A DNA stretch of 59,019 nt from positions 1 through 59,019 of IMG/VR virus record IMGVR_UViG_3300031716_000008; one strand, written 5' to 3'. The notes under the pieces are model-generated. The model was not told the origin of the DNA. It made no database searches and saw only the letters and a program-made list of their open reading frames with translations. Of the stretch, positions 5,731 to 57,816 are shown one piece after another. The first letter of the stretch is position 1, and every line of letters begins with the position of its first letter. Origin of the DNA: a virus (Duplodnaviria > Caudoviricetes). The translations under genes and the position numbers were made by a program.

Positions 5731-8415
5731 TCACTCCTGTTTGGCAAGTGTCTTCCAGCAGGTATCCCACCATTCGCGGTCGATTTGCCAGCCGAGCACG
5801 CCTCGGCGGCGGTTCTCCTCACGTAAAGCCCCAGCACCCGCCAGCAGCTTGGTGACTAACAGCACATCCAATGGTAGGCCGCCATACTGGGCAGCGGTAT
5901 CGCTCAAGGGAGTTTGCGCCATCCAGACGCTTTGCTGATCAGCGAGGTACATCACCTCGCCCTCGAACCCATTCTCTTCCCGGCCCAGGCGGACCGTGCC
6001 CAGGTTCAAGGCGTAGGCCACTAAGTTTACGAGAAAGCGTGACAGGTCGGTGCGGCCGGCCGGCTCCAGCACGGCGCCGGCGGAACGTACGCGAGCCTTG
6101 TCGCCACTCTGTCGATCGAACCAGTCGGCCAGGTCCTCCAGCAGCTCCGGCAGCTCAGCCGGTGCGTCCGGCCGGCGACGAAGCCAATCCTGCAAATAGT
6201 ACGGCACCAGGTACGGCACCGCTTCGTTCGTTAGTTGCAGCGATCCGAGGGGTCGAGCCCCGCGAATGACATGCCATGTCTGTCGCAGACCGAGCACCTG
6301 GTTGGCGATCGGCGGCAGCGACACGACCAGGCGACCCGCATCTTCGATCTCCAGCCAGCGGCCGGGCTCCAGCGTCTTGCCGGGAGCAGCCCGCAGGACA
6401 GCGGGCCAGGTATGCGAGGTCAGCTTCTCTTGGACGAACGTCACGAGGTTCTCGCTGCTACGGACCAGCTCTGGGCACCCCAGGAGCACGGCCGCCGCTT
6501 CACCGATCGTAGTCGCCCCTTCGCCATCGAGCAGCACGCCGCGGGGCTTGCGGTTCGCGATCGGCGACAGTAACCCCGCCAAGACGGCCGCAGTAGTTGC
6601 CCACACTAGGCGGACTTCTTCGTTGTCGGCCGAGAGTAGCTCTGACAGCCGCCGGGGAAAGAACATCTCCGGTGCGACCAGGTGCGACCCTGGCAACTGC
6701 GTCGTACGGACCAGGCACTGACTCTTGGGGTCCACGTCGCCCTTGGCTGTCAGGGCGAAATCCGGAAACTGCACCACCTGGCGTTCGATGTCCCAGCCGA
6801 CGCCATCGGCTCCGCGAACCTGCTCCGGCTCATGGAAGATGATTGATAAGCCAACCAGGTGCTTCCGCCAGATCGGCGAGTAGGAAATTGTCCCTGCGTT
6901 GGCCACGTCGCGGACGTAATCGAACATCCAAGCGAAGCCGCGGTTCTCCAGCGTCTTGGCCTGCTCCAGGAACGGTATTTCATGCTCCCGGAAATAAATC
7001 TTGCCCTGGTAGTAGGTCCGACCCGGCTGCGAGGTGATGACGCGTTCGATCTGCAGCGTGGCGTTACACAGCAGCTCGCCCTTGTTGTAGGTCCAGGTAT
7101 TATTTTGCTGACTGACCGTCCGACCGTTGAAACGAAGCCGGCGGACCGTGGCGCTATCTTCGTAGGCTGTCTCCAGCCGGCTGCGGAGGGCCTTGTTGCA
7201 ACCGAGCGCGAACTCCGCCATTTGCTCGTTGCTCAGCTCGACACGCACCAGCACTGATTCGACGTCGTCGTGCGACTTGCCGTCCAGATAGTGCCGCAGT
7301 CCTAACTCCCACGGCACAGCGCGGCGGGCAGCCCGCTGCAACATCCCGCCGCTGGTATGCGAATAGAGGTCGTGGACGATCGTGCCGATCGAGCTATCCA
7401 GTTCGGCGATCTCACCACCGGCGTAACGGGCCTGAGCCAAGCCGGCGAGACGATCTTCCGGAGCCCAGCAGACCACGCGATCGCGGCGGATCGTTTGCCA
7501 GGTTGTTTCCGTCCGTTCGCGCGGCGTGTCGTACGTCGCTACGATCGGCAGTGGATTGTAATTCATCTGCAGGTGCAGGAGCTGCATCCGCAGAGCCAAT
7601 AGCGGGTCGGTGATCGCGAACAGCGTACGGCCGAACTGAGGATGTTCCGGCAGCGTCGTATTTTCGATGAACGCCAGGCCGGCTTCGACGCGCTTGGCCG
7701 GCTTGTTGAGCTTCTCGATGCGTAGGTAGGCCAGTTGCCGCTCGCCCTCCTCGTCGTGGCCGGCGAGGAGCATGCCGCAGATACGGCCAGGCAAGTCGTG
7801 GTAGGGGATGACCAGGCAATGGTCCCAGCCGTCGCCACTCATGATTCCCTTGGGGAACCCGTTGCGACGTCGGAATTTGAGCAACCAGTTGGGTGTCTCG
7901 GCGCCGATCAGGTGCGTCAGCAGCACCTCTCGCGATACCACGCCGAAGTATTGCCCGCCGCGACTGTCCCAGGGGACGCCGACCTCCGGCAGCCGGAGTC
8001 GTTGCAGCACGCCGGCGGCGATCCGCTGATTATTGGCGGCCCAGCGTCGCGTTTCCTGCCAGAATTGCAAGGCTCGCTTCCGCCAGCGGACGTGCTCGCG
8101 GTGGTAAGTCGTGAAGACATCGGGCACTAAGGCCTGGGCTGTGACCACGCCGTAGCCGTGTAGTTTTTGCAGCGTTTGCGCGAGATCGAGCTTCCAAGCC
8201 GCCGCGGCAAGCTCTATCATGTCACCACAGGCATGACAGCCGCCGCAAGAGAACCAATCTTGCTGCTCTGTGGTGTCGCGGTAAATGTAGAGACTGCCCG
8301 TCTGGCAACAGGGACAAGTCACACAGACGGGAAGCACAGTCGACTTGATCGAGATGCCCAGAACGGGCAGTATCTGCGAAAATCGAACTTCTTGACCCAG
8401 GGAGGCGGTCCTCAT
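5731..8415 (-). CDS. primase-related protein (N-terminal DnaG-type zinc ribbon, degenerate TOPRIM-like region)
   Basis: CPCC...WFSCGGCHACGDMIELA resembles CHC2 zinc finger; LVIPYHDLPGRICG resembles DnaG core; 894 aa. Confidence 0.6.
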   Translation of the reverse strand: MRTASLGQEVRFSQILPVLGISIKSTVLPVCVTCPCCQTGSLYIYRDTTEQQDWFSCGGCHACGDMIELAAAAWKLDLAQTLQKLHGYGVVTAQALVPDVFTTYHREHVRWRKRALQFWQETRRWAANNQRIAAGVLQRLRLPEVGVPWDSRGGQYFGVVSREVLLTHLIGAETPNWLLKFRRRNGFPKGIMSGDGWDHCLVIPYHDLPGRICGMLLAGHDEEGERQLAYLRIEKLNKPAKRVEAGLAFIENTTLPEHPQFGRTLFAITDPLLALRMQLLHLQMNYNPLPIVATYDTPRERTETTWQTIRRDRVVCWAPEDRLAGLAQARYAGGEIAELDSSIGTIVHDLYSHTSGGMLQRAARRAVPWELGLRHYLDGKSHDDVESVLVRVELSNEQMAEFALGCNKALRSRLETAYEDSATVRRLRFNGRTVSQQNNTWTYNKGELLCNATLQIERVITSQPGRTYYQGKIYFREHEIPFLEQAKTLENRGFAWMFDYVRDVANAGTISYSPIWRKHLVGLSIIFHEPEQVRGADGVGWDIERQVVQFPDFALTAKGDVDPKSQCLVRTTQLPGSHLVAPEMFFPRRLSELLSADNEEVRLVWATTAAVLAGLLSPIANRKPRGVLLDGEGATTIGEAAAVLLGCPELVRSSENLVTFVQEKLTSHTWPAVLRAAPGKTLEPGRWLEIEDAGRLVVSLPPIANQVLGLRQTWHVIRGARPLGSLQLTNEAVPYLVPYYLQDWLRRRPDAPAELPELLEDLADWFDRQSGDKARVRSAGAVLEPAGRTDLSRFLVNLVAYALNLGTVRLGREENGFEGEVMYLADQQSVWMAQTPLSDTAAQYGGLPLDVLLVTKLLAGAGALREENRRRGVLGWQIDREWWDTCWKTLAKQE
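8395..8410 (+). promoter_or_regulatory. SD in AGGGAG hairpin loop, putative CsrA site
   Basis: GACCC-AGGGAG-GCGGTC upstream of 8414. Confidence 0.5.
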
Positions 8416-9625
8416 GACGGCTAACGTCCTCGATCACACTCAGGATTTGTCGGGCTCGGAACAGCATCGGCTGACGAATATCTACGCCCCGCCGGCCTTT
8501 GTTAAGGCGGCCAACCACGAACAGCTTTACGGCGACGCCGAAAAACTGCCGCATCACGTCTACGCCGATCCAACCAAGCGGTTGTACCCGCTGCACACGG
8601 CGGCGGCTACCTGGATGAGTGCCCTCTTCCTATTCGACAAGAAGGCCAACTTCGAGCCCCACCGCCTGGCGGCGTACGAAGCCAAGCTCAATGAGACGGC
8701 CCGGCACTTCGGGATCGCCGGCGATATCGCCCAGCTCAAGGTAGCCATGGCCCGCGACGAGAACAACGACGTCGCCCGTCTGCCGGATACTCAGTTCGCC
8801 CTGGTCTGGGAGGCTGAGGGCAAGAAGGAACGCCATTATCCGCTGCGGAACCGTATCGAGGTGAAGACTGCCTCCGAATGGTTTGGCAAGCACCGCGACA
8901 TGTTCGCCTTCGACGATCGCCGGCAGATCGCCAGCAAAATCCTCGCCCGGGCTGACGAATTGGCGGCCCCGGTGGCGGACATCGGTTTGCTCGTCAAAGC
9001 CGCCGGCCACGGCACGTGCGGCACCGAGCAGGCGATCGAGATGTTCGAGAAGCGGGCCGGCCTGGTCAACAGCCGCTACCCCGACCTCGCGGTCGAGATG
9101 CAGAAGCTGGCTAACAGCCTGCGGGCCTCCCCGTTGGCGGTGGCCGACAACGCCACCCGCCTGAAGATGGCGGCGACGGTCGATCAGTTCGACCGCCATA
9201 CTCACCTCAACCGGCTGTACGACGACGGCGGCCTGGAGCGGCCGGAAGAAATCCTCTTCCGCGTCACCCAGAAAGCCGCGTCCGAGTTCCTGCAGGATCA
9301 TATCTCCACGACCACCGGCTCGATCTACGAGAAGGCGGCCCTGGCCAAACTGACGCTCGGACACATCCAGCAGTGGATGGGTCGCGAAGTCGCCGAGGCA
9401 GTTAGCGCCGGCGGCTTGTACGTCGATATGGAGAAGCTGGCCGACGTCGTCACCACGTTGCCGCGTGGCGACGCGCAGATGTTCGACAAGATGGCCGAGT
9501 CCGTCGGCATCCAGCCGTATGCGGTTGAGAAAGCCGCGGAAGCCATCGGCCCCGATCGCGATGAGATCAAGGGCCTGGCGTCGCTTTATCAGCAGATGGC
9601 CAGCGAGGCTGTTCCGCTCAGTTAA
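8414..9625 (+). CDS. hypothetical protein, possibly head-associated
   Basis: 403 aa; GGAGG SD at 8401-8405; many KxA motifs. Confidence 0.75.
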   Translation: MTANVLDHTQDLSGSEQHRLTNIYAPPAFVKAANHEQLYGDAEKLPHHVYADPTKRLYPLHTAAATWMSALFLFDKKANFEPHRLAAYEAKLNETARHFGIAGDIAQLKVAMARDENNDVARLPDTQFALVWEAEGKKERHYPLRNRIEVKTASEWFGKHRDMFAFDDRRQIASKILARADELAAPVADIGLLVKAAGHGTCGTEQAIEMFEKRAGLVNSRYPDLAVEMQKLANSLRASPLAVADNATRLKMAATVDQFDRHTHLNRLYDDGGLERPEEILFRVTQKAASEFLQDHISTTTGSIYEKAALAKLTLGHIQQWMGREVAEAVSAGGLYVDMEKLADVVTTLPRGDAQMFDKMAESVGIQPYAVEKAAEAIGPDRDEIKGLASLYQQMASEAVPLS

Positions 9626-9968
9626 AGAGCTGATTCATCTTGTCGTCGTCGGACAGCTTCTGGCCGGCGACGCGGAGCGGCTTGGGATTGCGTGTCCAAC
9701 CCGGTACCAGGGCGTCTACTTCCTCGGCCGACCGCGACAGATCGGTGAAGCCCTGCACCTTGACGAAGACTTCGTCCGAGCCTTCTTTCACGACCACGGC
9801 CTGTACGACGTTGTCGAAGGTAGAGTTCGGCCCCGTGACGTTTGGGGCGTAGCCGGTGAGCAGCAGGTTGGGGAATGGCGGGCATGGTAGCTCCACCTTC
9901 CTCTCGTACAGCCAGAACGTCTGCTTATTGTCCAGAACGGCGAATTGGAGGGTGACTGGGTACTTCAT
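9618..9968 (-). CDS. hypothetical protein
   Basis: In-frame ATG 9968 (MKYPVTLQF...) of ORF 9618..10154. Confidence 0.6.
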   Translation of the reverse strand: MKYPVTLQFAVLDNKQTFWLYERKVELPCPPFPNLLLTGYAPNVTGPNSTFDNVVQAVVVKEGSDEVFVKVQGFTDLSRSAEEVDALVPGWTRNPKPLRVAGQKLSDDDKMNQLFN

Positions 9969-10209
9969 TTTTGCGGGGCAAGTGGGCGGTGGCGTTGGTA
10001 AGGCTACCCGTCTGCGGCACGGCCGCAGTTGTGGTGCCGGCAGCGACAGCAGCACGCTCGCGATCGGCGATCTCCTGCCGCTTGATCGGCACGTCGGACG
10101 GGGCTTCGAATCCCAGGCGAACTTTGTCGCCCATGACCTCGACGACGGTGACAACGATGTTGTCGCCGATTAGGACACGTTCATCACGCTTGCGGCTCAG
10201 TACTAGCAT
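9925..10209 (-). CDS. csrA: carbon storage regulator CsrA/RsmA family RNA-binding protein
   Basis: MLVLSRKRDERVLIGDNIVVTVVEVMGDKVRLGFEAPSDVPIKRQEI is the canonical CsrA pattern; GGAGG SD upstream. Confidence 0.93.
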   Translation of the reverse strand: MLVLSRKRDERVLIGDNIVVTVVEVMGDKVRLGFEAPSDVPIKRQEIADRERAAVAAGTTTAAVPQTGSLTNATAHLPRKNEVPSHPPIRRSGQ

Positions 10210-10239
10210 AGCAATGTTCCTCCCTGAGTAGGGTAAAGG

Positions 10240-12423: not shown

Positions 12424-13105
12424 AGTCTTCCTCTTGATTGACCACCGTCGGCTTGAGCAGGAACTCTTGGAGTTCCAGTTGTTCAGCCTTGACCGCTGGG
12501 TCGTTCCAAGGTTCGTAGCTGACCAGCTCGTCAGCCTTGTTGAGCAAGTACCGCTTGATGTAGTCACACACATCAGGCGGGAAGGTGAGCGACCGCCGGA
12601 GGCTCTCCTGCAGCAGAGCGCGGAAGGCGGTCTGCTGTCGCAGCCACCGCCGGGCGGAGAGGGCGAGGACGGCCTCCAGCGGCACCTGGTCGTACATTTG
12701 GTAGAGCGACTCCACATTGCGCACGCACCAGATGACGGTCTGCCAGAGATGCTGGTCGACCATATCGTGAATACGATATACGCCTTGCGGCGTGGACCAG
12801 GTGTCGGACTGGAACCAGTCGATCAGGAACTCCGGCCGCGGGCGTTGTGGGGCGACCGCGACTTCGGACGGGGCGATGGCGTTCCGGGCTGCCTCGGCCC
12901 GGCGTTCCGCCGCCTCCCGCATCCGTCGCGTTACCATGCCGCCGAAGAGCCGATCGTTCTCGCGGCTCTGCTCGTAAGAGGCGCTCCGCTGGTTGTCCCG
13001 GCCGGGACCAGGGCCAAACGCCGCCCGCAGCCGTGCGTCGGCCGCACGTTCCTCCGGTGTGGGGAACAGGCTTTGGAGATCGTCGGCGTTGATTTCGTCA
13101 GACAT
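12392..13105 (-). CDS. hypothetical protein with shared C-terminal tag (YGKEARAIDL)
   Basis: 237 aa ORF in coupled chain. Confidence 0.7.
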   Translation of the reverse strand: MSDEINADDLQSLFPTPEERAADARLRAAFGPGPGRDNQRSASYEQSRENDRLFGGMVTRRMREAAERRAEAARNAIAPSEVAVAPQRPRPEFLIDWFQSDTWSTPQGVYRIHDMVDQHLWQTVIWCVRNVESLYQMYDQVPLEAVLALSARRWLRQQTAFRALLQESLRRSLTFPPDVCDYIKRYLLNKADELVSYEPWNDPAVKAEQLELQEFLLKPTVVNQEEDYGKEARAIDL

Positions 13106-14812: not shown

Positions 14813-14818
14813 CGGTTT

Positions 14819-15496
14819 CTAAGTACCAGGTTTGGGAGCTTCTTTTGGCGGCAGCGTGTCGTGACTGGCCAGCTCCGGTACGACGTCTTCTAGCTTTTCA
14901 TTGATCTCGATCAGCCTGAAGCCCTCGTCCTCGTCGTCGGCCCAGTACTCCTTGTCGAAGAAGGTGCGGCCGTCATCAAGAATGTAAAAGTAGCCGACTG
15001 CGTCGTAACCGCCGATCGGATGAATGAATATCGCCCAGCCGGCAGGCTGCCTCTCGATCTGCACGTCGGGCACATCGTAGTCGTCTATGTCCTTGGAGCC
15101 AAGAACGATTCGTACGCCATCGGACTCCAGGAGCAGGATGGACTTTTCGGGCTCCCCCCATTCGGGCTTCGTGTCGTTGGCGACCTCGTTGGGGTACAAC
15201 CGGCCGTTGTACGTTGGTACGTCTAGGGTTAGCTCACGGAGAGCCTTGCCGAAGGTAGGGATATCGCCGACGGCGATCGGCCCGGTCAGGGCGAAGTCGT
15301 CGAAGTCGGTCGGGTCGGCCGGCGGCTCATCGCCGGGCAGCAATTCGATCCCCAGCGACTTGGCCAGCTCCTTGTAGAACGCGTCCCGCTCGTCGGTAAA
15401 GGCTTCGGGGACGTTCTTCGGGTCGATGAGGACCGGGTACTGCTCGTACGCCGATCCCTGACCGTGGGTGAGGATATACAGCTTGGCAATGCTCAT
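14819..15496 (-). CDS. acidic hypothetical protein
   Basis: 225 aa ORF in coupled chain. Confidence 0.65.
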   Translation of the reverse strand: MSIAKLYILTHGQGSAYEQYPVLIDPKNVPEAFTDERDAFYKELAKSLGIELLPGDEPPADPTDFDDFALTGPIAVGDIPTFGKALRELTLDVPTYNGRLYPNEVANDTKPEWGEPEKSILLLESDGVRIVLGSKDIDDYDVPDVQIERQPAGWAIFIHPIGGYDAVGYFYILDDGRTFFDKEYWADDEDEGFRLIEINEKLEDVVPELASHDTLPPKEAPKPGT

Positions 15497-16359: not shown

Positions 16360-16545
16360 TTACTCCCTGGTTAATTCTCCGGTAAGCAACGCCCGTTCGA
16401 TACGGGCATCGTCCCAACAGACACGCTCTTTAATTCGTTTAATCTGCCGTCTGTGTACACCGAACTGCGCGCCGAGTCTGGTGAGCGTACCCTCGGCGTC
16501 GCGTATGTCTAGTATCTGTCGCAATGTGAGTTTGATATTGCCGTC
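16360..16545 (-). pseudogene. remnant C-terminal HTH of an HNH endonuclease
   Basis: Frame without a clear start: GNIKLTLRQILDIRDAEGTLTRLGAQFGVHRRQIKRIKERVCW, similar to the tail of the 11809..12423 HNH. Confidence 0.45.
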
Positions 16546-20812: not shown

Positions 20813-21284
20813 TGTCTTCCCTGACGCAGCGGGAATAATTCCGACGGAACAGCTCCGCCAGATTATAACCGATCGTCTCCAGTGGAGTCACCGGCAGCTT
20901 TTGGTGCTCGCCGGTTTCCAGATTCAGCCAACCTACGGCGTCGGTGCAAGTCACGAAATGCGTATCCGCAAATGCGAGTGTTAATTGACTTTCGGGCGGA
21001 TGGCCAACCCGCAATTCAGGTTCGAGCGTATTGGCTTGCCAGTACCAGCCGCCATAATGCCGCAGTGTGCCGCGGTAGCTGTTTATAATGAGCTGCACGG
21101 CCTCGACGGAGAGCCACGGCAGCTTATTCAGCAGGACGTAGGTCCAGGCTATTAAACAACTGCCGCCGTCGAACTCGCCGCACGGGTGTAGCCTGAGCAA
21201 GTCCAGTAGCCATACGCGCTTTAGGCCAGATAGCTCTGTGACCGGTATTACTACCTGTCTGGGAAATGGTTGTCTACCGCTCAT
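20778..21284 (-). CDS. hypothetical protein
   Basis: ATG 21284 coupled to upstream stop; 3' part of ORF 20778..21761. Confidence 0.6.
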   Translation of the reverse strand: MSGRQPFPRQVVIPVTELSGLKRVWLLDLLRLHPCGEFDGGSCLIAWTYVLLNKLPWLSVEAVQLIINSYRGTLRHYGGWYWQANTLEPELRVGHPPESQLTLAFADTHFVTCTDAVGWLNLETGEHQKLPVTPLETIGYNLAELFRRNYSRCVREDSASTGCQNPLD

Positions 21285-23708: not shown

Positions 23709-24718
23709 TAGCGGTAGTGGAGCGTGATCTCGGCTCCGTCGACTTGGATAGTAGCCAGATCGATCTCCGTGCTGGCTTCGATCGGCAGATGGACAATGAC
23801 GGCCAGACCGAAATCGCCTTGCTTGAGCAGAGCCGGCGACCAGGTCTCGTCCCATAGGTCGTCAGCGCCGCCGGCGTCGACGCTGGTAAAGCCGGGGCCG
23901 GGTACGCAGTCGTCGACCGCTTCGCTCTCAATCAGGCCGATCTCCGGGTGGTGGAGGGCCATGAAGGTGAGCTGCGGGCAGAAGCTGAGATCGCCATCCT
24001 GCTCGACCCAGCGAATCGCCAGGCGGGTGCTGATGCCAACGATATCGGCGTCGTCAGGCAGCTCGCTGAAGTCGAAACCCTTGATCACCAGGAGCTGGCT
24101 GGAGAAGGCCGGGTAGAGCGTATTGAACGAATAGTTGCCGTCGGACAGCGGCGAGCCCGCCCCTGTACCGTGCTGCAGCCAAGGTGAGCCTACGCCGGCG
24201 ACGCTCTGTTCGTTGGTGCCGGAGGCCGTGATGGTCTGGACAGGCCCCTCGGGCTCCGACGGTGCGGATGATTCGGAGGGAGCGGAGCTAGTGGATGAGA
24301 CCGAGGATGCTGGCGGGCAGATGTCGCCGATGTCTTCCTGGCCGGATGGAATAACGGTGTCCATGACGTCCAGCGTGCGCTTGAGCCGACGGACGTCGTC
24401 CACGACGGCCTCGATTAGCTCCTCGACCTCGCTGACCGAGCGGATTAGCAGATCGACATAGGGCAGCCGAAACCATTCCGGCCGCTGACCGCTGACGGGC
24501 TCGGCGGCCGGGTACTCTTCCAGATCGACCGGCGAGCAAATGTGGCTGAAGAAGCCGGCCTGCTCGCCCGTCTCTGGATTGATGGGCCGCATACGGTAGG
24601 CAAAGACTTCGTTTGCCATCTCGCAAGCGTCCGATGCCGTGATCCGTAGCCGAATACCGTCGTGCTTACCGAAGACGTACCGGCTGGCCGCCCAATTCAA
24701 GCGAATGCCTCTGGCCAT
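23708..24718 (-). CDS. two-domain putative virion protein with Ser/Pro linker
   Basis: 336 aa; PPASSVSSTSSAPSESSAPSEP linker; beta-rich C-terminal domain. Confidence 0.7.
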   Translation of the reverse strand: MARGIRLNWAASRYVFGKHDGIRLRITASDACEMANEVFAYRMRPINPETGEQAGFFSHICSPVDLEEYPAAEPVSGQRPEWFRLPYVDLLIRSVSEVEELIEAVVDDVRRLKRTLDVMDTVIPSGQEDIGDICPPASSVSSTSSAPSESSAPSEPEGPVQTITASGTNEQSVAGVGSPWLQHGTGAGSPLSDGNYSFNTLYPAFSSQLLVIKGFDFSELPDDADIVGISTRLAIRWVEQDGDLSFCPQLTFMALHHPEIGLIESEAVDDCVPGPGFTSVDAGGADDLWDETWSPALLKQGDFGLAVIVHLPIEASTEIDLATIQVDGAEITLHYR

Positions 24719-24737
24719 CCCTGCCGCCCTCCCTGGC

Positions 24738-26114: not shown

Positions 26115-27194
26115 TTACAGATCGAGTTGGAGGGCTGGTCGGCGTGTCACCGGCGCCGGCTTCTTGGCGAACGTAGAAACCTCACCCGCGTCGGTCAGCG
26201 ACGGGTGGAATACGGAGCTAGGCTGGAGCGACGGCAGCGTGCCATCGTCGTAATACGACTGTGCGGCCGCGACGACCATGTCGGGTGTGATCATCTCCAA
26301 GCACAGCGGCACGGCCTGGCCTGGTGTCAGCACTGGATGTTTGCAGAGCGAGTCGTCGTCGCTGATCTTGACGACCTTGTTCTTCCAGCAGCCGTGGGCC
26401 GCGCAGCAATCGAGCAAGCCGATCGTATGCAGACAGCGGTGCGGGACCTTGAGTTGGCCGGAGGCGAGCGGGCCGAAGCCGGAGTTCTCGTTGACGTAGG
26501 CCTCCCACCACCAGGCTTCGCGACCACCACTGAGCATGACGCAGGGTCGCTGGAGAGCTGCCGCCATGTGCATCGCGGCCGTGACGCCGCAGATCACGCC
26601 GTCGGCGTGCTTGATTAGCCGCAGCATGTCCCGCAGGTTTGACTCGCCAACCAGGTTGAGCGTGTTGTCCAGCGGCGGATGCCAATGCCCGCTGTCGGTG
26701 CTGCCGATCTGAACGACGCCGAGACCTTTCTCGACGAGACGATTGACCGTCTCCTGCATCTTGGTGATCCGCCAGACCTTGGCGGTGAAATCGCTCTTAC
26801 CGCCCGAGATCACGACCCAGTACCGCCCACTGACCAATGGCACCGTGGCTTCGTCGTGGGACAAGTGGATATCACCATACGGATAACGCAGCGGTACTTG
26901 AATACCGACCCGTTTATGGAAGTCGCGATGGAACCAGGCTAGGAAGTGGACCGTCTCGGTCTTCTGGGCTCTGATTCCGTCGCCGTACTGGCAGTCGACG
27001 TACTGGATGCCGTGCTGATCCTTGCGGTTCTTCAGCGGCGTCAGGTAGGGGTTGTTCCGCCAGATATCCGGGGCCGACGTATCGACGTCGATCTCCAACT
27101 CCGGATAGGTCAGCTTCAAATCACGAGCCAGGGCTGTCAGAACAGTGACGTCACCCGGAGCCCGGTTGTGACGCAATACAAAGCGACGAGACAT
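26115..27194 (-). CDS. GT9 family (heptosyltransferase-like) glycosyltransferase
   Basis: APGDVTVLTALARDLK, NNPYL, NLVGESNLRDMLRLIKHADGVICGVTAAMHMAAALQRPCV, CLEMITPDMV. Confidence 0.85.
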   Translation of the reverse strand: MSRRFVLRHNRAPGDVTVLTALARDLKLTYPELEIDVDTSAPDIWRNNPYLTPLKNRKDQHGIQYVDCQYGDGIRAQKTETVHFLAWFHRDFHKRVGIQVPLRYPYGDIHLSHDEATVPLVSGRYWVVISGGKSDFTAKVWRITKMQETVNRLVEKGLGVVQIGSTDSGHWHPPLDNTLNLVGESNLRDMLRLIKHADGVICGVTAAMHMAAALQRPCVMLSGGREAWWWEAYVNENSGFGPLASGQLKVPHRCLHTIGLLDCCAAHGCWKNKVVKISDDDSLCKHPVLTPGQAVPLCLEMITPDMVVAAAQSYYDDGTLPSLQPSSVFHPSLTDAGEVSTFAKKPAPVTRRPALQLDL

Positions 27195-27231
27195 TACACC
27201 CTCCCTGGCAATCTCTCAATCCTGCACGCTA

Positions 27232-29927: not shown

Positions 29928-29934
29928 TTGGTTT

Positions 29935-34063: not shown

Positions 34064-34069
34064 AGGTTT

Positions 34070-36898: not shown

Positions 36899-36914
36899 GA
36901 TCACTCCCTTGATC
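36899..36914 (-). promoter_or_regulatory. SD in AGGGAG hairpin loop, putative CsrA site
   Basis: GATCA-AGGGAG-TGATC upstream of 36897. Confidence 0.55.
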
Positions 36915-36917: not shown

Positions 36918-37547
36918 TTAAGCGACGAGTTTGTCGCCTTTACTTAAATTACAAAAAGCATGGGCCGTTTTCACGTTGTCATAGGTGTGTGTACCACCTC
37001 GTGAAATCGGTATGACGTGATCCATGTGCATTTTGTCAAAAAGCACTGGCTTGTGACAAATATGGCAAATCCCGTCGTCGCGGGTGAATACGGTTCGTTT
37101 TACAATGCGTTCGACTCGCGGAGCATTGGCTAGACGAGCGCTTCGGATTGCGCGGCGTTGCTTAAAGCTATCTGGGTTTCTCCTATAAGCGCGACGACCG
37201 GCAGCACGCACGACCTCGCGATTGCGACGTCTTTGGCGAGCATTATGCTTCCTACGATTCTGGTCGATATTACTGCGGTACCAGCGCTTACGGTCGCGTT
37301 TGACTTTTGCTGGGTCGGCGGCGCGAATTCGGCGCTGACGCAGTCGATTCCAGCGACGAAGTCGAGCCTGATGTCGTTTTCGATAAGTCCGGCCGCGGGT
37401 ATTTTGCGATCGCCGCGCTTGCGGCGTTTTTGACTTCTTACTGCGACAGACCTTGCAATAGCAATTACGGCCATCCGCACGACGCTTGGCAATGCCGAAT
37501 GCGTCGAGCGGTTTCCCGCGTTTGCAGGCCGAGCAGATTTTCAACAT
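36918..37547 (-). CDS. HNH homing endonuclease
   Basis: KICSACK..CYCKVC N-terminal finger; CHICH..HMDHVIPISRGGTHTYDNVKTAHAFCNLSKG. Confidence 0.9.
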   Translation of the reverse strand: MLKICSACKRGKPLDAFGIAKRRADGRNCYCKVCRSKKSKTPQARRSQNTRGRTYRKRHQARLRRWNRLRQRRIRAADPAKVKRDRKRWYRSNIDQNRRKHNARQRRRNREVVRAAGRRAYRRNPDSFKQRRAIRSARLANAPRVERIVKRTVFTRDDGICHICHKPVLFDKMHMDHVIPISRGGTHTYDNVKTAHAFCNLSKGDKLVA

Positions 37548-37565
37548 TGCCCCTGCTCCCTCGGT

Positions 37566-38186: not shown

Positions 38187-38205
38187 GTCGCTTCGCCTCC
38201 TGCGA

Positions 38206-39801
38206 TTATTGGCAGACTCCTGACACCAGCCGCAGTTGGGGGCGGTGTTCGCTCACTGCTGCGATCTCGTCCCGCCGGGGCTCCATCGCCGCAAACGTCC
38301 CGACGGTCTCACCGACGGCATTGGTTGTAACAGAATCCGCCGCCGGAGTCAGTTCCACTATGACAATTAAGGCGGTCTGGGGCGGCACTATCTTCCGGAG
38401 GAGTCGGGAGTTACGCAGCCCGACGCCCTGGCCAAGCGTGCTCGCCTTGATCTGAACGACGACGCAGTTGGATCGCAGGATGTTCTGTGCGAGGAAAAGG
38501 AGCGGATTGATGGTCGTGGGAAGGGCAGCCGCGGTAGGCTCTCCGTCTCGGACTGGTCGCTGATCCAAGAGGTGGGCCAGTGTGCCTCGCCGGTAGTGCT
38601 GGTCCTCGGTGTCGCAGCCGTCTCCGGGGATACGGAGTGTGCTGACGTCTTCGCAGTTATCGATAGGGCGGAGGGCTTCAGCCACACCGTTAGCATGTAG
38701 ATCGTCAAAGAAACGATCGACGTCCAGAGGAAAACCTCCAAGAGGAAATCGCAGCTTCGTAAAACCAGACGGATCATCGGTAATGACCTCCAGCGGGAAC
38801 TCTTTGTTCTCGAAGACTAGATCACCATAGTAGCAGCTCGCCAGGAACCCGGGACCCATGGCCAGGGCTTGCAGGCGGTCGTCGAGCTGCCCGCGGTTGA
38901 ACTCGAAGAAGAGGAAGCTGTCGACGAGCGGATCACCGGCGTGGACTGTGTCACCCACGCTGACGATCGGGTTAGCGTCCGGGTGGAACTTATAGACATG
39001 CTGGTCGGTGATGATCAGGCGGTGGGATTTATCCAGTTCGATAAACTCTACCGTCTCGGTGGCTTCTTCGACTAGCGGTACGCCGGTCATGGCGGAGAAG
39101 GCTGCCTCGACTTGCCGCTTGGCCGTACCGCCGACGATCGAATCGAAGACGGCGTTCATGATCTCGCGGTAGCCTTGGCTGGACTTCAACCGCAGATCGA
39201 GCACATAGCCGAACTGGCGGTAGATCGTCTCCCAATCGAAGTCGCCTTTGAACACCCATAGCAGGGCTTCGCGGTCGACGATGGTGCCGTCCTCATAGAC
39301 CGGGCGGACCGTCACACGGGGATCGGTGAAGGGGTTCTGTCGGAAGGTGATCGCCCCGATTGTCGTGTCGATTGTGAAATCGACATTCTTGGTCCACGTC
39401 AGCGAGGCCGAGAGGAAGCGGTTGAGGACCAACGGCGCGTCGACCAAGTCTTTTGGCAGCGGGAATGCGTGCGCGTCGCTGATCAGCGGCACGTCATAGC
39501 TGTCGATGCCATCATAGACAAGTCCAGTGTCATACCGCGGCAGCGACGTCGCGGCACTGTTGCGCTGGCTCTCCCGCACGACGAGCAGGTACCAATTGTC
39601 GCGGTGGAAGATCGGTACTTCATAGCGACTCAGGGCGGCGATCGTCTGGGCGGCATCCAGCATCGACTGTAGTTCGAGGTTGGCCTTGGCCTGCACGTAC
39701 GCCGAGACCTGGTCTTTCCGATCGTAGATGTCGGCCCAGAAAGTCCCCATGGTGCTGAGCAACACCTTGGGCTGGTCGTAAATAGTGGCGGGGTATTTCA
39801 C
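38206..39801 (-). CDS. baseplate wedge protein (putative)
   Basis: Follows baseplate J; FGYVL..YREIMNAVF; LRKIVPPQT (gpI-like). Confidence 0.6.
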   Translation of the reverse strand: MKYPATIYDQPKVLLSTMGTFWADIYDRKDQVSAYVQAKANLELQSMLDAAQTIAALSRYEVPIFHRDNWYLLVVRESQRNSAATSLPRYDTGLVYDGIDSYDVPLISDAHAFPLPKDLVDAPLVLNRFLSASLTWTKNVDFTIDTTIGAITFRQNPFTDPRVTVRPVYEDGTIVDREALLWVFKGDFDWETIYRQFGYVLDLRLKSSQGYREIMNAVFDSIVGGTAKRQVEAAFSAMTGVPLVEEATETVEFIELDKSHRLIITDQHVYKFHPDANPIVSVGDTVHAGDPLVDSFLFFEFNRGQLDDRLQALAMGPGFLASCYYGDLVFENKEFPLEVITDDPSGFTKLRFPLGGFPLDVDRFFDDLHANGVAEALRPIDNCEDVSTLRIPGDGCDTEDQHYRRGTLAHLLDQRPVRDGEPTAAALPTTINPLLFLAQNILRSNCVVVQIKASTLGQGVGLRNSRLLRKIVPPQTALIVIVELTPAADSVTTNAVGETVGTFAAMEPRRDEIAAVSEHRPQLRLVSGVCQ

Positions 39802-41453
39802 AGGGATTGCTTGAAGCCTTTGGCGACAACGCTAATACCAATATCGTCAGCACTGAGGAGCAGTGCTGTCGTGCGACCGGTCGTCATGATGCTGGCCTTG
39901 TTAGGCAGCTCCAGCACCGTCTTGCTGCGGACGATGACGTTCTGCCCGTCTGGCTGGCGGATACGGCCATGCAGGTCGATCGCGCCGACGGCCTGGCGTT
40001 TCGTGAGGTAGTTGTGGACCACGTCGGCAATGACCGAGGCATGCAACTGGCCGGGGAAGTCGAAGGAGTTGACGCGGGCGGCGATGTCGTTCTTGATCGA
40101 CCCGAGGTCCGGTGCCGTCTCGTTCGACCCTTGCTCGATGTTGAAGTTGATCGACAGGAAACAGGGGACCGCGGCTTTGACGAGCACGTCGCCGCCCGGG
40201 TCCCGCACGTCGCGGCCGCCGATGAAGGTTTGCAGCTCGGAAATCAACGGCATCGTCGCGACGACGATGTCGTAGTCTTTCGTCTGGCCCAGGGCCATGG
40301 CCGAGACATCGGTCTCGGTATCGAGGAACTGAATCACGGCGGTCTGGTAGGGGCTATAAGCCGCCTCGACGGCCGTGACGATATCCGGCAGGAAGCCCGC
40401 GCCCGAGAGGTCGAAGCCGCGGACGTCGGAAGTCACGGCAAACCCGGAGTCAATCGTCGGATCGGCTCCCGCCGGCAGGACCTGCGTGATCTCGTAGAAG
40501 CCGGGGGCGTCTTCCTTCGCCATCGCGAATTGCCAGGTGCTCCCGCCGCCCAGCTTGGCGACCAGCACGGCCGTCTTGTGGAGCGTGATCTCCTTGGCGA
40601 TGTCGGCGGTGCGAGAATAGATATCACAGCGCCCGAGCAGGGCGATGGGGACGATGGAGTGAAACGCCCGCTGCATCTCCGGGTTGCCAGAGCCGATGAT
40701 CGAGTAGTGCAGCGTCTGGGCGAACGTCGGTTGCTCTTTGATCAAGGCGACAATGTTCGTGCGGTTGCTCCAGGCCTTGGCGGCGATCCCCAGGTTGAGC
40801 CGAGTGATGACGTCTTCGTTGGTCTCGGTGTCGGTGCCGCCGTTGAAGTCGGTGGCGGAGTACGACGTCACGAAGCGGTCGAGCGGTCGGTCGGGGATGA
40901 GCTGCGTGTTGCGGCGGATGTTGCCGGCCGTGCCGACGGTCTCGGCAGTGGCATTGATCGAGAAGACGTACTGGTCGCCGCTGACGGGCTCCAGGACCCG
41001 TTCATTGTCGTCGGAGATTACGCTGCCCGGCGGCCGGGCGATGTATGGGGCGTCGGCGATGAAGACGATGCCCTCGGCCGCGAAGCGGGCGCCGGCGCTG
41101 AGTACGACGGTGGCAGTGCCGGTAACAACGATCGCGATCTCGCCCGTCGCTGGCGTGCCCGTGTTGCGGGTAATGCGATGGTTCGAGAAGACCTTGTCGG
41201 CCAGTTCGTCATCGGCCAGCGCCGGGTTCTGGGTGATGCCGAGCAGGCTGTTCGACTCCAGCACCCGATTCATCTCGGTCTGGTTGATGCCGCCGCCCAC
41301 GCCGCCGGCGAAGTAAGCCACGATGTCATGGATCACGCCGCCCGTCAGCTCCACCTGGGGATACTTCTCCTGGATGAGCTGCGTCAGCTCGGCCTGGGCC
41401 TGCGATACGACGTCAGGGTCGAGATCATCCAGCGTTTGTACTTTGAGACTCAT
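39798..41453 (-). CDS. baseplate J-like wedge protein
   Basis: ITRNTGTPATGEI, ATAETVGTAGNI, FNGGTDTETNEDVITRL hallmarks. Confidence 0.85.
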   Translation of the reverse strand: MSLKVQTLDDLDPDVVSQAQAELTQLIQEKYPQVELTGGVIHDIVAYFAGGVGGGINQTEMNRVLESNSLLGITQNPALADDELADKVFSNHRITRNTGTPATGEIAIVVTGTATVVLSAGARFAAEGIVFIADAPYIARPPGSVISDDNERVLEPVSGDQYVFSINATAETVGTAGNIRRNTQLIPDRPLDRFVTSYSATDFNGGTDTETNEDVITRLNLGIAAKAWSNRTNIVALIKEQPTFAQTLHYSIIGSGNPEMQRAFHSIVPIALLGRCDIYSRTADIAKEITLHKTAVLVAKLGGGSTWQFAMAKEDAPGFYEITQVLPAGADPTIDSGFAVTSDVRGFDLSGAGFLPDIVTAVEAAYSPYQTAVIQFLDTETDVSAMALGQTKDYDIVVATMPLISELQTFIGGRDVRDPGGDVLVKAAVPCFLSINFNIEQGSNETAPDLGSIKNDIAARVNSFDFPGQLHASVIADVVHNYLTKRQAVGAIDLHGRIRQPDGQNVIVRSKTVLELPNKASIMTTGRTTALLLSADDIGISVVAKGFKQSL

Positions 41454-46096: not shown

Positions 46097-46110
46097 CAGC
46101 CTCCCTGCTG
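46097..46110 (-). promoter_or_regulatory. SD in AGGGAG hairpin loop, putative CsrA site
   Basis: CAGC-AGGGAG-GCTG upstream of 46093. Confidence 0.55.
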
Positions 46111-53952: not shown

Positions 53953-53964
53953 ACCTCCCTGTAT
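53953..53964 (-). promoter_or_regulatory. SD matching CsrA consensus, tail tube
   Basis: ATACAGGGAGGT versus SELEX consensus RUACARGGAUGU (one mismatch). Confidence 0.55.
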
Positions 53965-54031: not shown

Positions 54032-56914
54032 CTAAACAACTAAGTGCAATTCGATGTTGTTAAGCGGCGCTGGCAAAACTAGGTCGACCACGATCACGAC
54101 CCGGTCCGCCAGCAAGTCGTGAATCTTCGGATAACCGTCGCGGATCGAGCCGTCGATGATCTGAGCCCCCAGCTCCTCGGTGAAACCGTTGACCATCAGG
54201 AACTTGATCACCTGGTCGCACTCGTACTTCAGCTTGCGGAGCATCACGGGCGTGACGTTCGCACGGCCGATGAACGGACGCAGCCGGTTGAGGAACAAGT
54301 AGGAGATCGAGTCCAAGTTGCGGCGGATCGATTCCTCCCAATGCTTCAGATCGGTCGTGTCAGTCGTCAGGGCGTGTCGTGTGTGCGGGGTGCCATCGCG
54401 ATCTTCAGTCGCGATCCAGACGCCGCCGTCATCGAGATTGTCGAGCTGCGTGCCGCTGAAGAAGTCGGTCGTGCGAGATGCCAAATCGTCAAAGCCGGCA
54501 ATCTCGACATTGGTCAGCGGCTGGTGCGGTAGGACGCCCGAAGCGAGGCCCGCCAGGGCAGCGCAAAGGAAGTAGCCGTCTTGAGTGTTGCCACCAGTAC
54601 CGACGAGGTCCGGCCAGACGGCACAGACGCGGCGATCGGCAAAGGCCTGGGCTTGGTCCTTGAGATCGTCGACGATTTCATTCTTGGTGTTCGTGTGCCA
54701 GATTTCGACCTTCTGGGCGACGGTGACCGGCTCGCTGTTGCCGGCCAGGAGGAGCAGCGTGTTCTCGGACAGCACGCGATCCACCACGAACTCGGTGTAG
54801 CTCGTGTTGCCGAAGGCGTCGATCGTGTACAGGAAGCGGACGATGTCGCCGGCCTGCACGCCGTAGGTCAGGAAGCCGCCGTTGGCAGCGGGCACACGCA
54901 GCCGCGTGTACTGCGTGCCGGAGGCCTGCGGATTGTCGTCGAGGGTGGCCAGGACGACGTTGCCGTCGGTGGACGTCGGGTGGAGGAGCTGGGTATCGGC
55001 GTCGCTCTGACCTACGACCATTTTGGCGGAGGTTGCTTGGAGGCCGATGAACATCGCCTTCCAGTTGCCCGCCTCGGGCGAGGACTCGCTCGTGACGTGG
55101 GCGTGGAAGAGATTGAGGACTTCGGCGTCGTGGGTCAGCGGCGCGAAGTTGTAAACGTCGTTGCGACCGTCGACGCGGTCGATGACGTTCTGCCAACTGT
55201 CGAGGCTCGACGGATCGGCGACGGCCGTGTAGGCCACGTCGGTGCCGTTGCTGTTGAGCAGCGCACGGAACACGCCCCACTTGAGCGGATTGGCTTCGTC
55301 GAGCTGGCCCGGGATTTCATCCAGGTTGGCCGTGTCGTTGATGAAGCCGATGGTGCCGGTGAGGGCCGTTAGCCATTCGCGGTATTCGATGTACTGGGTG
55401 CCGCCAAAGACAGGCATGGCCTGCTCGACGCCGTTGAGCGTCCAGGTGGCATCGTAGGCAGTGATGCCGTCGGCAACGCAGAGCTGGGTCTCTTCGATTG
55501 TGTAGTTGGTCAGCGGCGGATCGCTCAGACGATTCTCGGTGACCTCGATGTTCTTCACGATGAACAGCCGCAGATCGAGATCGGAGGCGGCCAGCAGCTC
55601 GTCCGGCAGATCGTCACGGAGGACGAGCGTGTGGATGGCACCGTTGGAGCCGGAGACGACGGTGATGTAAAACTTGTCGCCCTTGCGGAGGCCGGCGATG
55701 GTGCTGTCGCCGCCGAAGTCATCACCCTCGAAGGCAGCCTCGGACGAGTTGCTACCGAAGCAATCGACAAACTTGGCGGTCACGCCCCACGAGCCGATCG
55801 GGAACTCAGTGTTCGCGTCGGTGATGGTGGTCGGACCGGATTGATCGAGACCTTTGGCGGTGGTCACGGAGATTTGGGGCAGCTCGGCCCACGATCCGCC
55901 TTTGACCACCGTGAGCACGTAGGTGTCGTCGAAGGGACCGTCGTAGGTGCCGCCAGACTGAATACAGGCCCGCTCGAAGTCCTGGCAGACGCTGACTTCC
56001 CATTTCTGGCCGATCGCCAGCTCGGCGGACGGCACACCCTCGGACGAGGCACTGAGCGAGCAGTTGCCCGGCGTGTTGTCGAAGGTCACCGTCAGGCCGC
56101 GACTGCCGATGTCCGTCGGCTCGCCGAAGTCGGCGACTTCGACTTCCGTAGCATTGTCGGTGCCACTGGCTGAAGTGACGCGGAGCCGGGCCGCATTGCA
56201 ACCAGCTACGCTCGATTTGACCACTTCAATTGTGTACGTCTCGCAAACGTAACCGTCTGCGAGGCCATCGTAGGCAGCGGCATTGGCGGTCGCGCCGATG
56301 CAATTGACCGGTCCGTCAATGAACTCGATCGTCGCGCTGGCCGCGGTGGTCGGGGTGTTGTTGGCATCCTCGGAGGTAGCGGTGATCTGTCCGTCCGACT
56401 CGTCGGCGACGAAGTCTTTGACGTACGTCCACAACTCGATCTCTTCGCAGGCGGCCTCGTCGTCGTTGACGCCGCGGATATAGACGCGATCGCCGACGGC
56501 TACGTCGCGGTCGTTGAACAGACCGCTGCGAGAGAACTCCCCGTTGGTCTTGTATGACAGAGTGCTCGACTTGATTTGGTTGGTATGGCCTTCTACCGGC
56601 GTGACCGTGCCGCGGCCATGGCTGGTGTCGCCGATCAGGTCCTCGTGGTAGAGGAGCAGGGCGTCGTCGATGAACAATCGCACGGAGTCGTTGTCGACGA
56701 GCGAGCCGGCTGTGCGGCCTGGCCATGTGAAGCAGTTCTCCGTCAGGCGATCATACTCGCCGACGTTGATCAGCGCCTTCTCATCTGCCACGGCATAGCG
56801 ATGCAGCATCGCGTTTGGGCCGGAGATGTGGGCTCGCAGCGGATTGGTGACTTCCGAAGGAGTGAGCGTGAACTCTTGGAAGACGAGAACTTGTGGCTTG
56901 ACGATGGTGGGCAC
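54032..56914 (-). CDS. tail sheath protein with large inserted domains
   Basis: C-terminal AALAGLAS..PHQPLTN..RHALTT..EESIRRNLD..PAPLNNIELHL sheath pattern; 960 aa. Confidence 0.88.
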   Translation of the reverse strand: MPTIVKPQVLVFQEFTLTPSEVTNPLRAHISGPNAMLHRYAVADEKALINVGEYDRLTENCFTWPGRTAGSLVDNDSVRLFIDDALLLYHEDLIGDTSHGRGTVTPVEGHTNQIKSSTLSYKTNGEFSRSGLFNDRDVAVGDRVYIRGVNDDEAACEEIELWTYVKDFVADESDGQITATSEDANNTPTTAASATIEFIDGPVNCIGATANAAAYDGLADGYVCETYTIEVVKSSVAGCNAARLRVTSASGTDNATEVEVADFGEPTDIGSRGLTVTFDNTPGNCSLSASSEGVPSAELAIGQKWEVSVCQDFERACIQSGGTYDGPFDDTYVLTVVKGGSWAELPQISVTTAKGLDQSGPTTITDANTEFPIGSWGVTAKFVDCFGSNSSEAAFEGDDFGGDSTIAGLRKGDKFYITVVSGSNGAIHTLVLRDDLPDELLAASDLDLRLFIVKNIEVTENRLSDPPLTNYTIEETQLCVADGITAYDATWTLNGVEQAMPVFGGTQYIEYREWLTALTGTIGFINDTANLDEIPGQLDEANPLKWGVFRALLNSNGTDVAYTAVADPSSLDSWQNVIDRVDGRNDVYNFAPLTHDAEVLNLFHAHVTSESSPEAGNWKAMFIGLQATSAKMVVGQSDADTQLLHPTSTDGNVVLATLDDNPQASGTQYTRLRVPAANGGFLTYGVQAGDIVRFLYTIDAFGNTSYTEFVVDRVLSENTLLLLAGNSEPVTVAQKVEIWHTNTKNEIVDDLKDQAQAFADRRVCAVWPDLVGTGGNTQDGYFLCAALAGLASGVLPHQPLTNVEIAGFDDLASRTTDFFSGTQLDNLDDGGVWIATEDRDGTPHTRHALTTDTTDLKHWEESIRRNLDSISYLFLNRLRPFIGRANVTPVMLRKLKYECDQVIKFLMVNGFTEELGAQIIDGSIRDGYPKIHDLLADRVVIVVDLVLPAPLNNIELHLVV

Positions 56915-56934
56915 GTCGTAACCTCCCTGTTGGA
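56915..56934 (-). promoter_or_regulatory. SD in AGGGAG hairpin loop, putative CsrA site, tail sheath
   Basis: AAC-AGGGAG-GTT with outer GTC/GAC pairing. Confidence 0.55.
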
Positions 56935-56951: not shown

Positions 56952-57650
56952 TCAGCCGCCGTAGCCAATGAAATCGGATGCTCGGAAGACAATGCGTTTC
57001 AACCTCGGAGCTTCTTGTTCCAGGTACCAGGACTCCGGCACCAGGTAGGCGACGTCAACGGGGACGACATAGTGTTCAGTCGACTCCTTTAACGCTGCCA
57101 GGGCTCCAATACCGACAACCGTAAAAAACTGCAGATCGAATGCCGTGGTTATTTCTCTTCCGTACCACAACAACGTCTTGGCTACTTCCGTCGCTAAGCC
57201 CTGCGTCTCCGCGCCTTGCTTAGCAACGCAAAACAGGGTATGGGTTCCAGACCACTGACCAGAAAATTCTTCCCGGCCCGTGACCCAATCGGCGCTCCAA
57301 ACATTGCCGATCCCCATCCGCTTCCACTGCCACGCGCCTTCTTTAATGACGATGGCTGGTCGCGCTTCCATCAGCTCCGGTCGCCATCGAGCAATCGCTT
57401 CGATGTACACCCCGGAGGTTACTCCCTGATTCCAGGCTCCGTTGGTTTCTAAGTACCGGCGGAGATTGGGCAGGATGATCTGTGTCGGATCGACAAAGTG
57501 CTGGAGAAGAATCTGGCGGAGCATCCCCGAGATGACAGTCTGGTTGTGCCCGTAAGAGCACAGCGAGCTGAGGACCTTAAATCGATCCTCCGGGCTACTG
57601 CCCGGCGGATACGGCTCAGCGAGACTGCCCCTGGGGACATTCGGGGCCAT
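56952..57650 (-). CDS. tail terminator/neck protein (putative)
   Basis: RPAIVIK motif; directly upstream of sheath; GGAGG before ATG 57650. Confidence 0.6.
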   Translation of the reverse strand: MAPNVPRGSLAEPYPPGSSPEDRFKVLSSLCSYGHNQTVISGMLRQILLQHFVDPTQIILPNLRRYLETNGAWNQGVTSGVYIEAIARWRPELMEARPAIVIKEGAWQWKRMGIGNVWSADWVTGREEFSGQWSGTHTLFCVAKQGAETQGLATEVAKTLLWYGREITTAFDLQFFTVVGIGALAALKESTEHYVVPVDVAYLVPESWYLEQEAPRLKRIVFRASDFIGYGG

Positions 57651-57816
57651 TGATCGCCTCCCTGCTTGTAGCCCGGTTGAGACCGAGCGCTCCATCGACC
57701 ACTCTTTGGTTCGGTTCGTAAGTCGAGATATCGAGTGTCTTGATCAAACCTCGCTTGGCTAATTCGCCGGGCGTTAGCGGCGGCAATTTGGCCTGTGCTT
57801 GGTTGTCTCCGGACAC
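57616..57816 (-). CDS. small hypothetical protein
   Basis: GAGGAG upstream of GTG; fills the gap. Confidence 0.45.
   Translation of the reverse strand: MSGDNQAQAKLPPLTPGELAKRGLIKTLDISTYEPNQRVVDGALGLNRATSREAINGPECPQGQSR

Follow-up and report, generated by a model that had tools for sequence, protein, structure and literature searches.

Does a phage that carries a gene for the translational regulator CsrA use this protein on its own start sites? The question is raised by a myovirus whose whole record of 59,019 bases (IMG/VR record IMGVR_UViG_3300031716_000008) was analyzed here and is referred to as the window. An earlier inspection of its letters (the sequence-only reading) had noted a csrA gene and a recurring Shine-Dalgarno (SD) sequence with complementary flanks that differ from site to site, and had proposed that CsrA tunes the synthesis of virion proteins and autoregulates csrA. 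We found that a covarying hairpin of 2-4 base pairs (bp), with a hexaloop and built around GGAGG, is a real and conserved start-site element, whoever reads it. To judge from the sequence of the element, the chances are about even that CsrA-bound SD hairpins let the phage's own CsrA, and perhaps also that of the host, govern the translation of about ten phage genes including csrA.

The hexamer AGGGAG was not enriched in the window (19 copies found, 24.2 expected). The 8-mer CAGGGAGG was found 8 times, with 1.82 +/- 1.23 copies expected, and 0 of 100 shuffled sequences reached this number. All eight copies are located 5-9 nucleotides (nt) upstream of a start codon: those at 57650, 56914, 53946, 46093, 27194, 24718 and 10209 on the minus strand, which carries nearly all genes of the phage, and that at 8414 on the plus strand. 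The automatic gene caller missed the csrA open reading frame (ORF), and the total of eight was counted by hand. CA stood before GGAGG in 7 of the 10 automatically called start sites, compared to 7 of 51 internal occurrences (p 6.5e-4), and a second complementary pair was present in 6 of 7 sites, compared to 8 of 20 internal ones (p 0.048). The 8-mer is the window form of a wider motif, N-C-[A-N-G-G-A-G]-G-N', in which the C-G pair closes the bracketed loop. All motif sites of the window are preceded by intergenic gaps of at least 19 nt, whereas many other genes start by overlap or coupling.

The tail sheath gene (54032-56914, minus strand; 960 amino acids (aa), PHROG 279) starts with GTG at 56914 behind the 3-bp hairpin aac-AGGGAG-gtt (56920..56931). 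The tail tube gene starts with ATG at 53946 behind the 2-bp hairpin ac-AGGGAG-gt (53953..53962), and the 12-mer AUACAGGGAGGU of its leader matches 11 of the 12 positions of RUACARGGAUGU, the CsrA consensus obtained by systematic evolution of ligands by exponential enrichment (SELEX). The tube label, taken over from the sequence-only reading, rests on the position after the sheath, and no family match was obtained for this protein in Pfam or PHROG. The sheath is about twice the usual length, and its sheath-family match is confined to the last third of the protein (PHROG 279, residues 742-874). Upstream of the sheath gene, a 232-aa gene (p232, ATG at 57650) has the 2-bp hairpin gc-AGGGAG-gc (57656..57665). 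The csrA gene has tc-AGGGAG-ga, also with a 2-bp stem (10218..10227), and its GGAGG lies 9 nt from the ATG at 10209. Stems of 4 bp were found at a 158-aa gene (ATG at 46093; cagc-AGGGAG-gctg, 46097..46110; folding free energy (dG) -3.6 kcal/mol) and at the gene of a heptosyltransferase-like glycosyltransferase of GT9 type, so assigned by Pfam and PHROG searches (26115-27194, ATG at 27194; tgcc-AGGGAG-ggtg, 27197..27210, with two G-U pairs). A 336-aa gene (p336, start at 24718) carries a double site at 24716..24737, composed of gcc-AGGGAG-ggc (3 bp) and of CAGGGATG, which contains the start ATG. These sites are all on the minus strand. On the plus strand, the ribosome-binding site of the gene of a 403-aa protein (p403; 8394..8411, ATG at 8414) holds CAGGGAGG at 8398-8405; only its C-G pair is contiguous, and GACC/GGTC needs one bulged C.

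Variants of the element, all on the minus strand, were also seen. The 206-aa gene p206 (ATG at 38186) has the pentaloop form tcgc-AGGAG-gcga (38193..38205, 4 bp), and the 624-aa gene p624 (GTG at 36897) has the A-U-closed form gatca-AGGGAG-tgatc (36899..36914, 5 bp). To the sites listed earlier we added CAGGGAAG (20814..20825), which forms gtc-AGGGAA-gac with 3 bp and a weak SD in front of a 222-aa gene that starts with GTG at 20812. At the start sites 37547, 29004 and 16355, AGGGAG is present with a stem of 0-1 bp. The loop sequence in CAGGGAGT (16362..16369), before the GTG at 16355, is without a closing pair, and GAGGGAGC (37555..37562), before the ATG at 37547, has a 1-bp stem and was excluded from the motif count. 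Most stems were as the sequence-only reading had described them, including its remark that some are of only 2 bp (as at csrA and 57650), with small corrections: the tube stem is of 2 contiguous bp rather than 4+2, and the stem at 8414 extends beyond C-G only with the bulged C. Of note, the gene that starts at 37547 (36918-37547, minus strand) encodes an HNH or endonuclease VII-like protein, sits amid tail and baseplate genes, and resembles a homing insertion with its own GAGGGAGC start site. Its HNH match was the sole one in PHROG and Pfam searches of ten motif-bearing or neighboring proteins.

Six related viral contigs (G1, G2, G5, G6, G7 and G8; the window is G0) were found via the sheath, terminase and ATPase, and were taken whole. 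In tblastn comparisons, the genes in common, sheath, tube and GT9 among them, were 28-59% identical. Gene starts were assigned with our own codon-usage caller, and any GGAGG 3-10 nt before a candidate start was taken as a site. The motif was present at ribosome-binding sites in six of the seven records, the window included. CA stood ahead of N-GGAGG at 7/10 starts in the window and at 12/21, 10/25, 2/8, 3/13, 8/19 and 1/26 in the other records, the last being G8. Over all seven records, this amounts to 43/122 start-site GGAGG compared to 39/454 inside genes (Fisher p 7.6e-12).

The flanks of these sites pair far more often than any control. At 43 start-site CANGGANG of three phages, the mean number of further pairs was 1.49, compared to 0.60 in non-cognate combinations of flanks, and 0 of 20,000 permutations reached the observed value. 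The pair adjoining C-G was present in 28/31 CA-N-GGAGG start sites, but in only 43/113 of the same 8-mers inside genes (p 1e-7); start sites with no CA, read in the same register, had it in 37/103. Across the seven records the corresponding numbers were 39/43 at start sites and 123/327 at internal CANGGANG. An ungapped alignment of 44 sites showed the adjoining pair in 40 (AU 12, CG 9, GC 9, UA 8 and GU 2; A-U or U-A in 20/44, G-C or C-G in 18/44), and the next three positions outward were paired in 29/44, 21/44 and 23/44. The covariation score was 0.517, compared to 0.155 +/- 0.028 for shuffled columns, where 0 of 500 shuffles reached it, and to 0.08-0.16 in registers with the partner shifted by 1-3 columns. 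Shared descent inflates these counts little, because the sites belong to different genes. The differing, complementary flanks of the recurring SD are thus borne out, and the possibility raised against them from the outset, that such flanks are no commoner than in shuffled sequence, does not hold. The loop letter N tends to be uniform within a phage and may be G, C, T or A from one phage to another: the window has G, C prevails in G2, G1 has G or T, and G7 is mixed. Two other origins of the pattern were rejected. Transcription start at the C or A does not fit, as bases upstream of the C covary with downstream bases, and neither does a DNA-level operator, since the arms vary, the center is fixed, and every site is on the coding strand.

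The element was also followed at orthologous genes. The sheath motif is present in G0, G1, G2 and G7, with A-U, C-G, G-C and G-C as the respective second pairs and with differing N. The tube motif is present in G0, G2 and G7, and G1 has the pentaloop form tcac-AGGAG-gtga in its place. The motif at p232 was found in G0, G1 and G6, and that at p403 in G0, G6 (4 bp) and G7 (2 bp). Orthologues of these four genes are 34-59% identical in protein sequence and retain the element with a different N and different pairs. The p624 orthologues of G1 and G5 have CA-N-GGAGG where G0 has the A-U-closed form; those of p206 have the near-identical cgc-AGGAG-gcg in G6 and CAAGGAGG (4 bp) in G5; and those of p336 in G5 and G6 also carry CA-N-GGATG over the start. 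The motif at GT9 is limited to the window and is not kept at GT9 in the six relatives. The GT9 gene itself is kept in all six (47-56% identity); a gene of this kind is unusual in the core of a phage.

The gene at 9925..10209 (minus strand, 94 aa) is a true csrA, as the sequence-only reading had held. Residues 1-50 match Pfam PF02599 with E 1.4e-21 and 76.7 bits (cut-off 27), and the closest solved chain is RsmE 2JPP (E 1e-10, aligned over residues 1-57). Residues L2, L4, R6, R44 and E46 are invariant in an alignment of the phage CsrA with 12 relatives and are aligned also to RsmE 2JPP and E. coli CsrA 1Y00. We take these to be the RNA-contact residues at both ends of the CsrA domain, and the predicted RNA-binding residues of the phage protein are intact. 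Of note, the protein ends in a 45-residue tail rich in Ala, Thr and Pro (9925-10065); typical cellular relatives of 64-67 aa are without it, and a few database relatives are long too (111-162 aa).

Pfam CsrA matches were obtained in six of the seven records, with two copies in two of them. The one record with no match, G1, is only a fragment (43% complete) and is also without p403, the gene beside csrA elsewhere. In G0, G5, G6 and G7, p403 is closely followed downstream by a csrA-family gene on the opposite strand; such a gene beside p403 was looked for in G2 and G8 and not found. The syntenic genes of G5 (12663-12758), G6 (92645-92734) and G7 (88892-88987; L130, L137 and L145, respectively) have about 20 extra residues inserted behind the first beta strand. 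They retain MLVLSR and the late arginine, and their Pfam match is weak (E 1e-8 to 1e-4). The p403 gene (8414-9625, plus strand), one of the few on this strand, is tail to tail with csrA and conserved in five relatives. Its model is all-helical (pLDDT, the predicted local distance difference test, 78.4) and has no named match in BFVD, and an assignment as major capsid protein was set aside on both grounds. A scan of viral contigs with CsrA as the sole query yielded no relative.

Because the nearest named relatives of the phage CsrA are CsrA proteins of Pirellulaceae and other Planctomycetota, the host is likely a planctomycete. The 16S genes of two Pirellulaceae end in GGATCACCTCCTTTCTAAGG, and the tail of the likely host group is CCUCCUUUCU (CCTCCTTTCT in both genomes). 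The complement of this tail upstream of GGAGG would be AAA, which leaves the C of the motif without a partner. Where N is C or T, as happens in the relatives, pairing cannot be extended to the A. Judged by these 16S ends, ribosome pairing would explain neither the C, the A nor the N of the motif, so that the anti-SD is not the full explanation that the sequence-only reading had named among the findings that would refute its proposal.

Two complete or near-complete Pirellulaceae genomes were searched for the same element. GGAGG-N4-9-ATG occurred 744 and 600 times (311 and 314 for the reversed-pattern control), and CAN stood in front, giving CANGGAGG start sites, in 72 and 54 (control 16 and 12), which is about 10% raw or 13-15% of the excess. 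The second pair was present in 39/72 and 27/54 of these by hand count, above the ~37% expected (binomial p 5e-4) and well below the phages (p 2e-6). In a 400-kb host-type sample, 13 of 298 genes had a GGAGG start site, four of them with CA. Two 20-kb regions around the ribosomal protein L2 gene had the motif at none of the first two candidate starts of their 31 and 39 listed ORFs; these ORFs were not annotated singly, and one motif site from the genome scan does fall in the region of the Pirellulaceae genome G003. Together with the csrA-bearing Pseudomonas phage phi297, where the motif occurs at 0 of 68 annotated starts, 50 of which have GGA in the ribosome-binding zone, these numbers show that the motif is not a general phage or host habit. 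Among the neighbors of one cellular csrA only a sulfatase was matched, and no flagellar context was seen. In G003, an identical 20-nt start region (TCACGGAGG, an identical spacer and ATG) occurs three times, probably as part of a repeated gene, for instance a transposase.

The motif coincides with what is described for CsrA-family targets. The RsmE-contact consensus is A/U-CANGGANG-U/A (PMC6849547), and in the SELEX consensus the ACA and GGA are invariant, with the GGA in a hairpin loop (PMC4347634). The window has 8 exact CA-N-GGA-N-G at starts, in addition to CAGGGAAG and CAGGGATG. As in the RsmE and CsrA sites that cover an SD (hcnA and glgC type), CA, GGA and the closing G are fixed in the phage motif, the flanking pair covaries, the GGA would sit in a hexaloop, and the SD is overlapped. 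In contrast to them, the phage sites are on genes of a phage with its own csrA, are candidate targets, and are usually one per leader, with a last loop base that is always G (the SD being GGAGG) and an N that is uniform within each phage.

Most stems are weak. Of the 43 sites, 4 have a total stem length of 1 bp, 14 of 2 bp, 10 of 3 bp, 8 of 4 bp and 7 of 5-7 bp, and the median hairpin energy was +0.7 kcal/mol, with dG <0 in 16 and >=0 in 27. Partition-function folding of the window leaders (-40..+12) gave closing-pair probabilities of 0.83 for p624, 0.78 for p336 and 0.37-0.43 for GT9 and p206. The remaining leaders were at ~0-0.18, with ~0 for sheath, tube, csrA, p232 and p403. G7 has long stems, of 4-7 bp at seven of its eight sites and of 2 bp at the remaining one, and they are stable, with dG values as low as -8.4. 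Thus, the flanks covary in 40/44 sites as a GGA in a hairpin loop would demand, yet only 16/43 have dG <0, and most window leaders are not so folded as free RNA; the claim that the hairpin loops present the ribosome-binding sites is not upheld by folding of the free leaders. Since pairing is under selection although most stems are too weak to fold alone, this suggests a state that is held by a protein partner.

A mechanism can be proposed on this basis. The SD would sit in a hexaloop closed by the C-G pair and at least one covarying pair, in the shape and sequence that CsrA/RsmE dimers grip. A CsrA-family protein, the phage's own and possibly the host's, would clamp the weak hairpins and occlude the SD. 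In this way, translation of sheath, tube and about eight further genes, csrA among them, would be adjusted in its rate or its timing. That CsrA is the reader and acts as a repressor is our inference, as is the choice between the phage and host proteins. In its widest form, the proposal is that a soil myovirus lineage, probably living on planctomycetes, may possess a self-contained CsrA regulon, in which a core csrA-family gene and CsrA-optimum hairpins on sheath, tube and other SDs meter or time virion synthesis post-transcriptionally, with a phage-specific loop letter; we rate this a little below an even chance. If true, it would be the first defined function and the first defined target set for a phage-encoded CsrA. 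It would also offer about ten short, defined RNA targets per genome, natural compensatory variants and a matching small protein, which makes a compact system for how a virus turns a borrowed global regulator on itself.

Several observations weigh against CsrA as the reader. Tight CsrA binding usually bridges two GGA sites, and at least two per target are expected. A second GGA in the window leaders (-90..+45) is clear only at 24718, is weak at tube, GT9 and 57650, and is missing at the sheath. A csrA-family gene does not entail the motif, because G8 has two such genes and CA at only 1/26 GGAGG start sites; phi297, as described above, combines csrA with a lack of the motif. A relative free of csrA, which would provide the contrast for the association of motif and csrA, was not found. 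Any hairpin closed by the last G of GGAGG would require the C at the 5' side, and in G5 and G6 a C at this position also occurs with T or C replacing the A. The uniform N is predicted by neither SD pairing nor the CsrA consensus. Autoregulation of csrA, which the sequence-only reading had included, has the motif at the window csrA in its favor, whereas 0 of 3 canonical csrA genes of the relatives have it, and only 5 of 80 leaders of cellular planctomycete csrA do, which gives no support for conserved autoregulation. Two host flagellin leaders, meant as a positive control, were uninformative, as CANGGANG was not seen in them by eye. Scans with Rfam and for GGA density found no sponge-like RNA in the phage. 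Finally, it is counter-intuitive that the element, as a repressor site, should mark the genes whose products are required in the largest amounts; possible rationales are timing, dosage balance and protection from decay. Non-structural genes (GT9, csrA) carry the element too. As for the proposed tuning of virion proteins by CsrA, the match of the motif to the CsrA/RsmE optimum and the csrA-family genes of six records speak for it, and G8, with csrA and nearly no motif, against it. This most distant relative (192 kb, L151-L160) has the ordinary start sites TAAGGAGG or AAGGGAGG.

The alternative that survives best is a start-site design that needs no protein: the hairpin would display or mildly mask the SD and so tune de novo initiation, and CsrA would be irrelevant here and act on host mRNAs. 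The gaps of at least 19 nt before all window sites, set beside the overlap or coupling of many other genes, suit this idea, as do the presence of the element on abundant virion genes and the long, stable stems of G7. The C would be forced once the last G of GGAGG closes the hairpin, the non-A bases that follow it in G5 and G6 would be tolerated, and csrA with hardly any motif (G8, phi297) would be no surprise. However, weak hairpins alone could neither display nor mask the SD, because dG is >=0 in 27/43 and the hairpin has a probability of ~0 in free RNA at sheath, tube and csrA. The invariant A at loop position 1 is without an SD rationale where N = C or T, and stable 6-nt loops such as those of G7 would be expected to hinder a 5-bp SD helix. 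The host starts around the L2 gene, at none of which the motif was seen apart from the genome-scan site in G003, argue in the same direction. Taken together, we regard this design as unlikely, though a serious contender.

Less probable still is a different reader, for instance an RNA-binding protein of the phage other than CsrA, or an endoribonuclease by which SD sites are marked or cut, in the manner of T4 RegB or RegA. RegB of T4 cuts GGAG, and RegA binds AU-rich starts and blocks them. Both resemble the present case in that a phage factor acts on a set of its own ribosome-binding sites; they belong to unrelated protein families, and both act without the need for a hexaloop hairpin whose stem covaries. 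A phage-specific N, as though each phage's factor favored its own loop, would be accounted for, as would the scarcity of the motif in G8 despite its csrA, and there is room for such a factor among the window proteins, most of which are without a family match in Pfam or PHROG. No candidate protein was identified, though, and the agreement of eight fixed positions and a pair with the CsrA/RsmE optimum (PMC6849547) would have to be a coincidence.

Reversing the direction of control, abundant late phage mRNAs could act as a sponge that titrates the CsrA of the host and so reprograms it. The sites are on the transcripts expected to be most abundant, and the phage is without a sponge RNA of the CsrB or RsmZ type: 0 Rfam matches were obtained at the gathering score, and the densest stretches, with at most 4 ANGGA per 200 nt, are inside genes. 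A phage that encodes csrA would, however, add the very protein that it titrates, and one site per mRNA compares poorly with the known multi-site RNAs, which makes the sponge very improbable. An ordinary strong SD with chance flanks, for which one could cite the pairing of AGGGAGG with the anti-SD over 7 positions with one G-U and the lack of AGGGAG enrichment, can be dismissed, as every enrichment and covariation control was exceeded and the C, and N = C or T in relatives, would stay unexplained.

CsrA control of the phage's own start sites would differ from what has been described. Homologues of CsrA/RsmA encoded by phages are known (Sobrero and Valverde 2020, PMC7366521; Campa et al. 2021, PMC8450108; Adler et al. 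2025, PMC11879866), and in the available text of these papers their role was guessed to be host manipulation or had previously been untested; knockdown of one phage csrA led to small plaques. As in these cases, the csrA-family gene here is in a phage whose host group has CsrA too. The targets proposed for the known homologues are host genes, for example CRISPR-Cas, whereas the candidate targets here are the phage's own start sites, and the gene is present in six of seven related records here but sporadic there. In the literature covered, phage-borne csrA is therefore already known and its targets are not, and no phage turned up for which the CsrA optimum had been reported at its own start sites; supplementary tables, outside that coverage, might list related contigs. 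Repression of the ColE7 lysis gene cel by CsrA (PMC2896534) likewise places a gene of a mobile element under translational CsrA control. There, a host regulator acts on a single target to which binding was demonstrated; the present case has about ten candidate targets and a regulator encoded by the phage itself.

No close relative of the phage was found among the 50,697 deposited phage records of INPHARED, which were searched for near-identical DNA, and its sheath has only four weak matches there, at 28% identity. Four sequencing runs hold the phage, all of them soil DNA metagenomes; RNA runs among them were 0. Family searches further identified the large terminase (700-2652, plus strand) and a baseplate wedge protein (39798-41453). 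A second repeated sequence was noted at starts: TTAGAAACC occurs at 14814-14822, 29930-29938, 34065-34073 and 57444-57452, all on the minus strand, giving 4 copies compared to 0.17 expected. Three of the copies directly precede the start codons at 14812, 29927 and 34063, with the TAG stop of the upstream gene within the motif, and TTAGAAACC is possibly a second, SD-less type of leader for coupled re-initiation.

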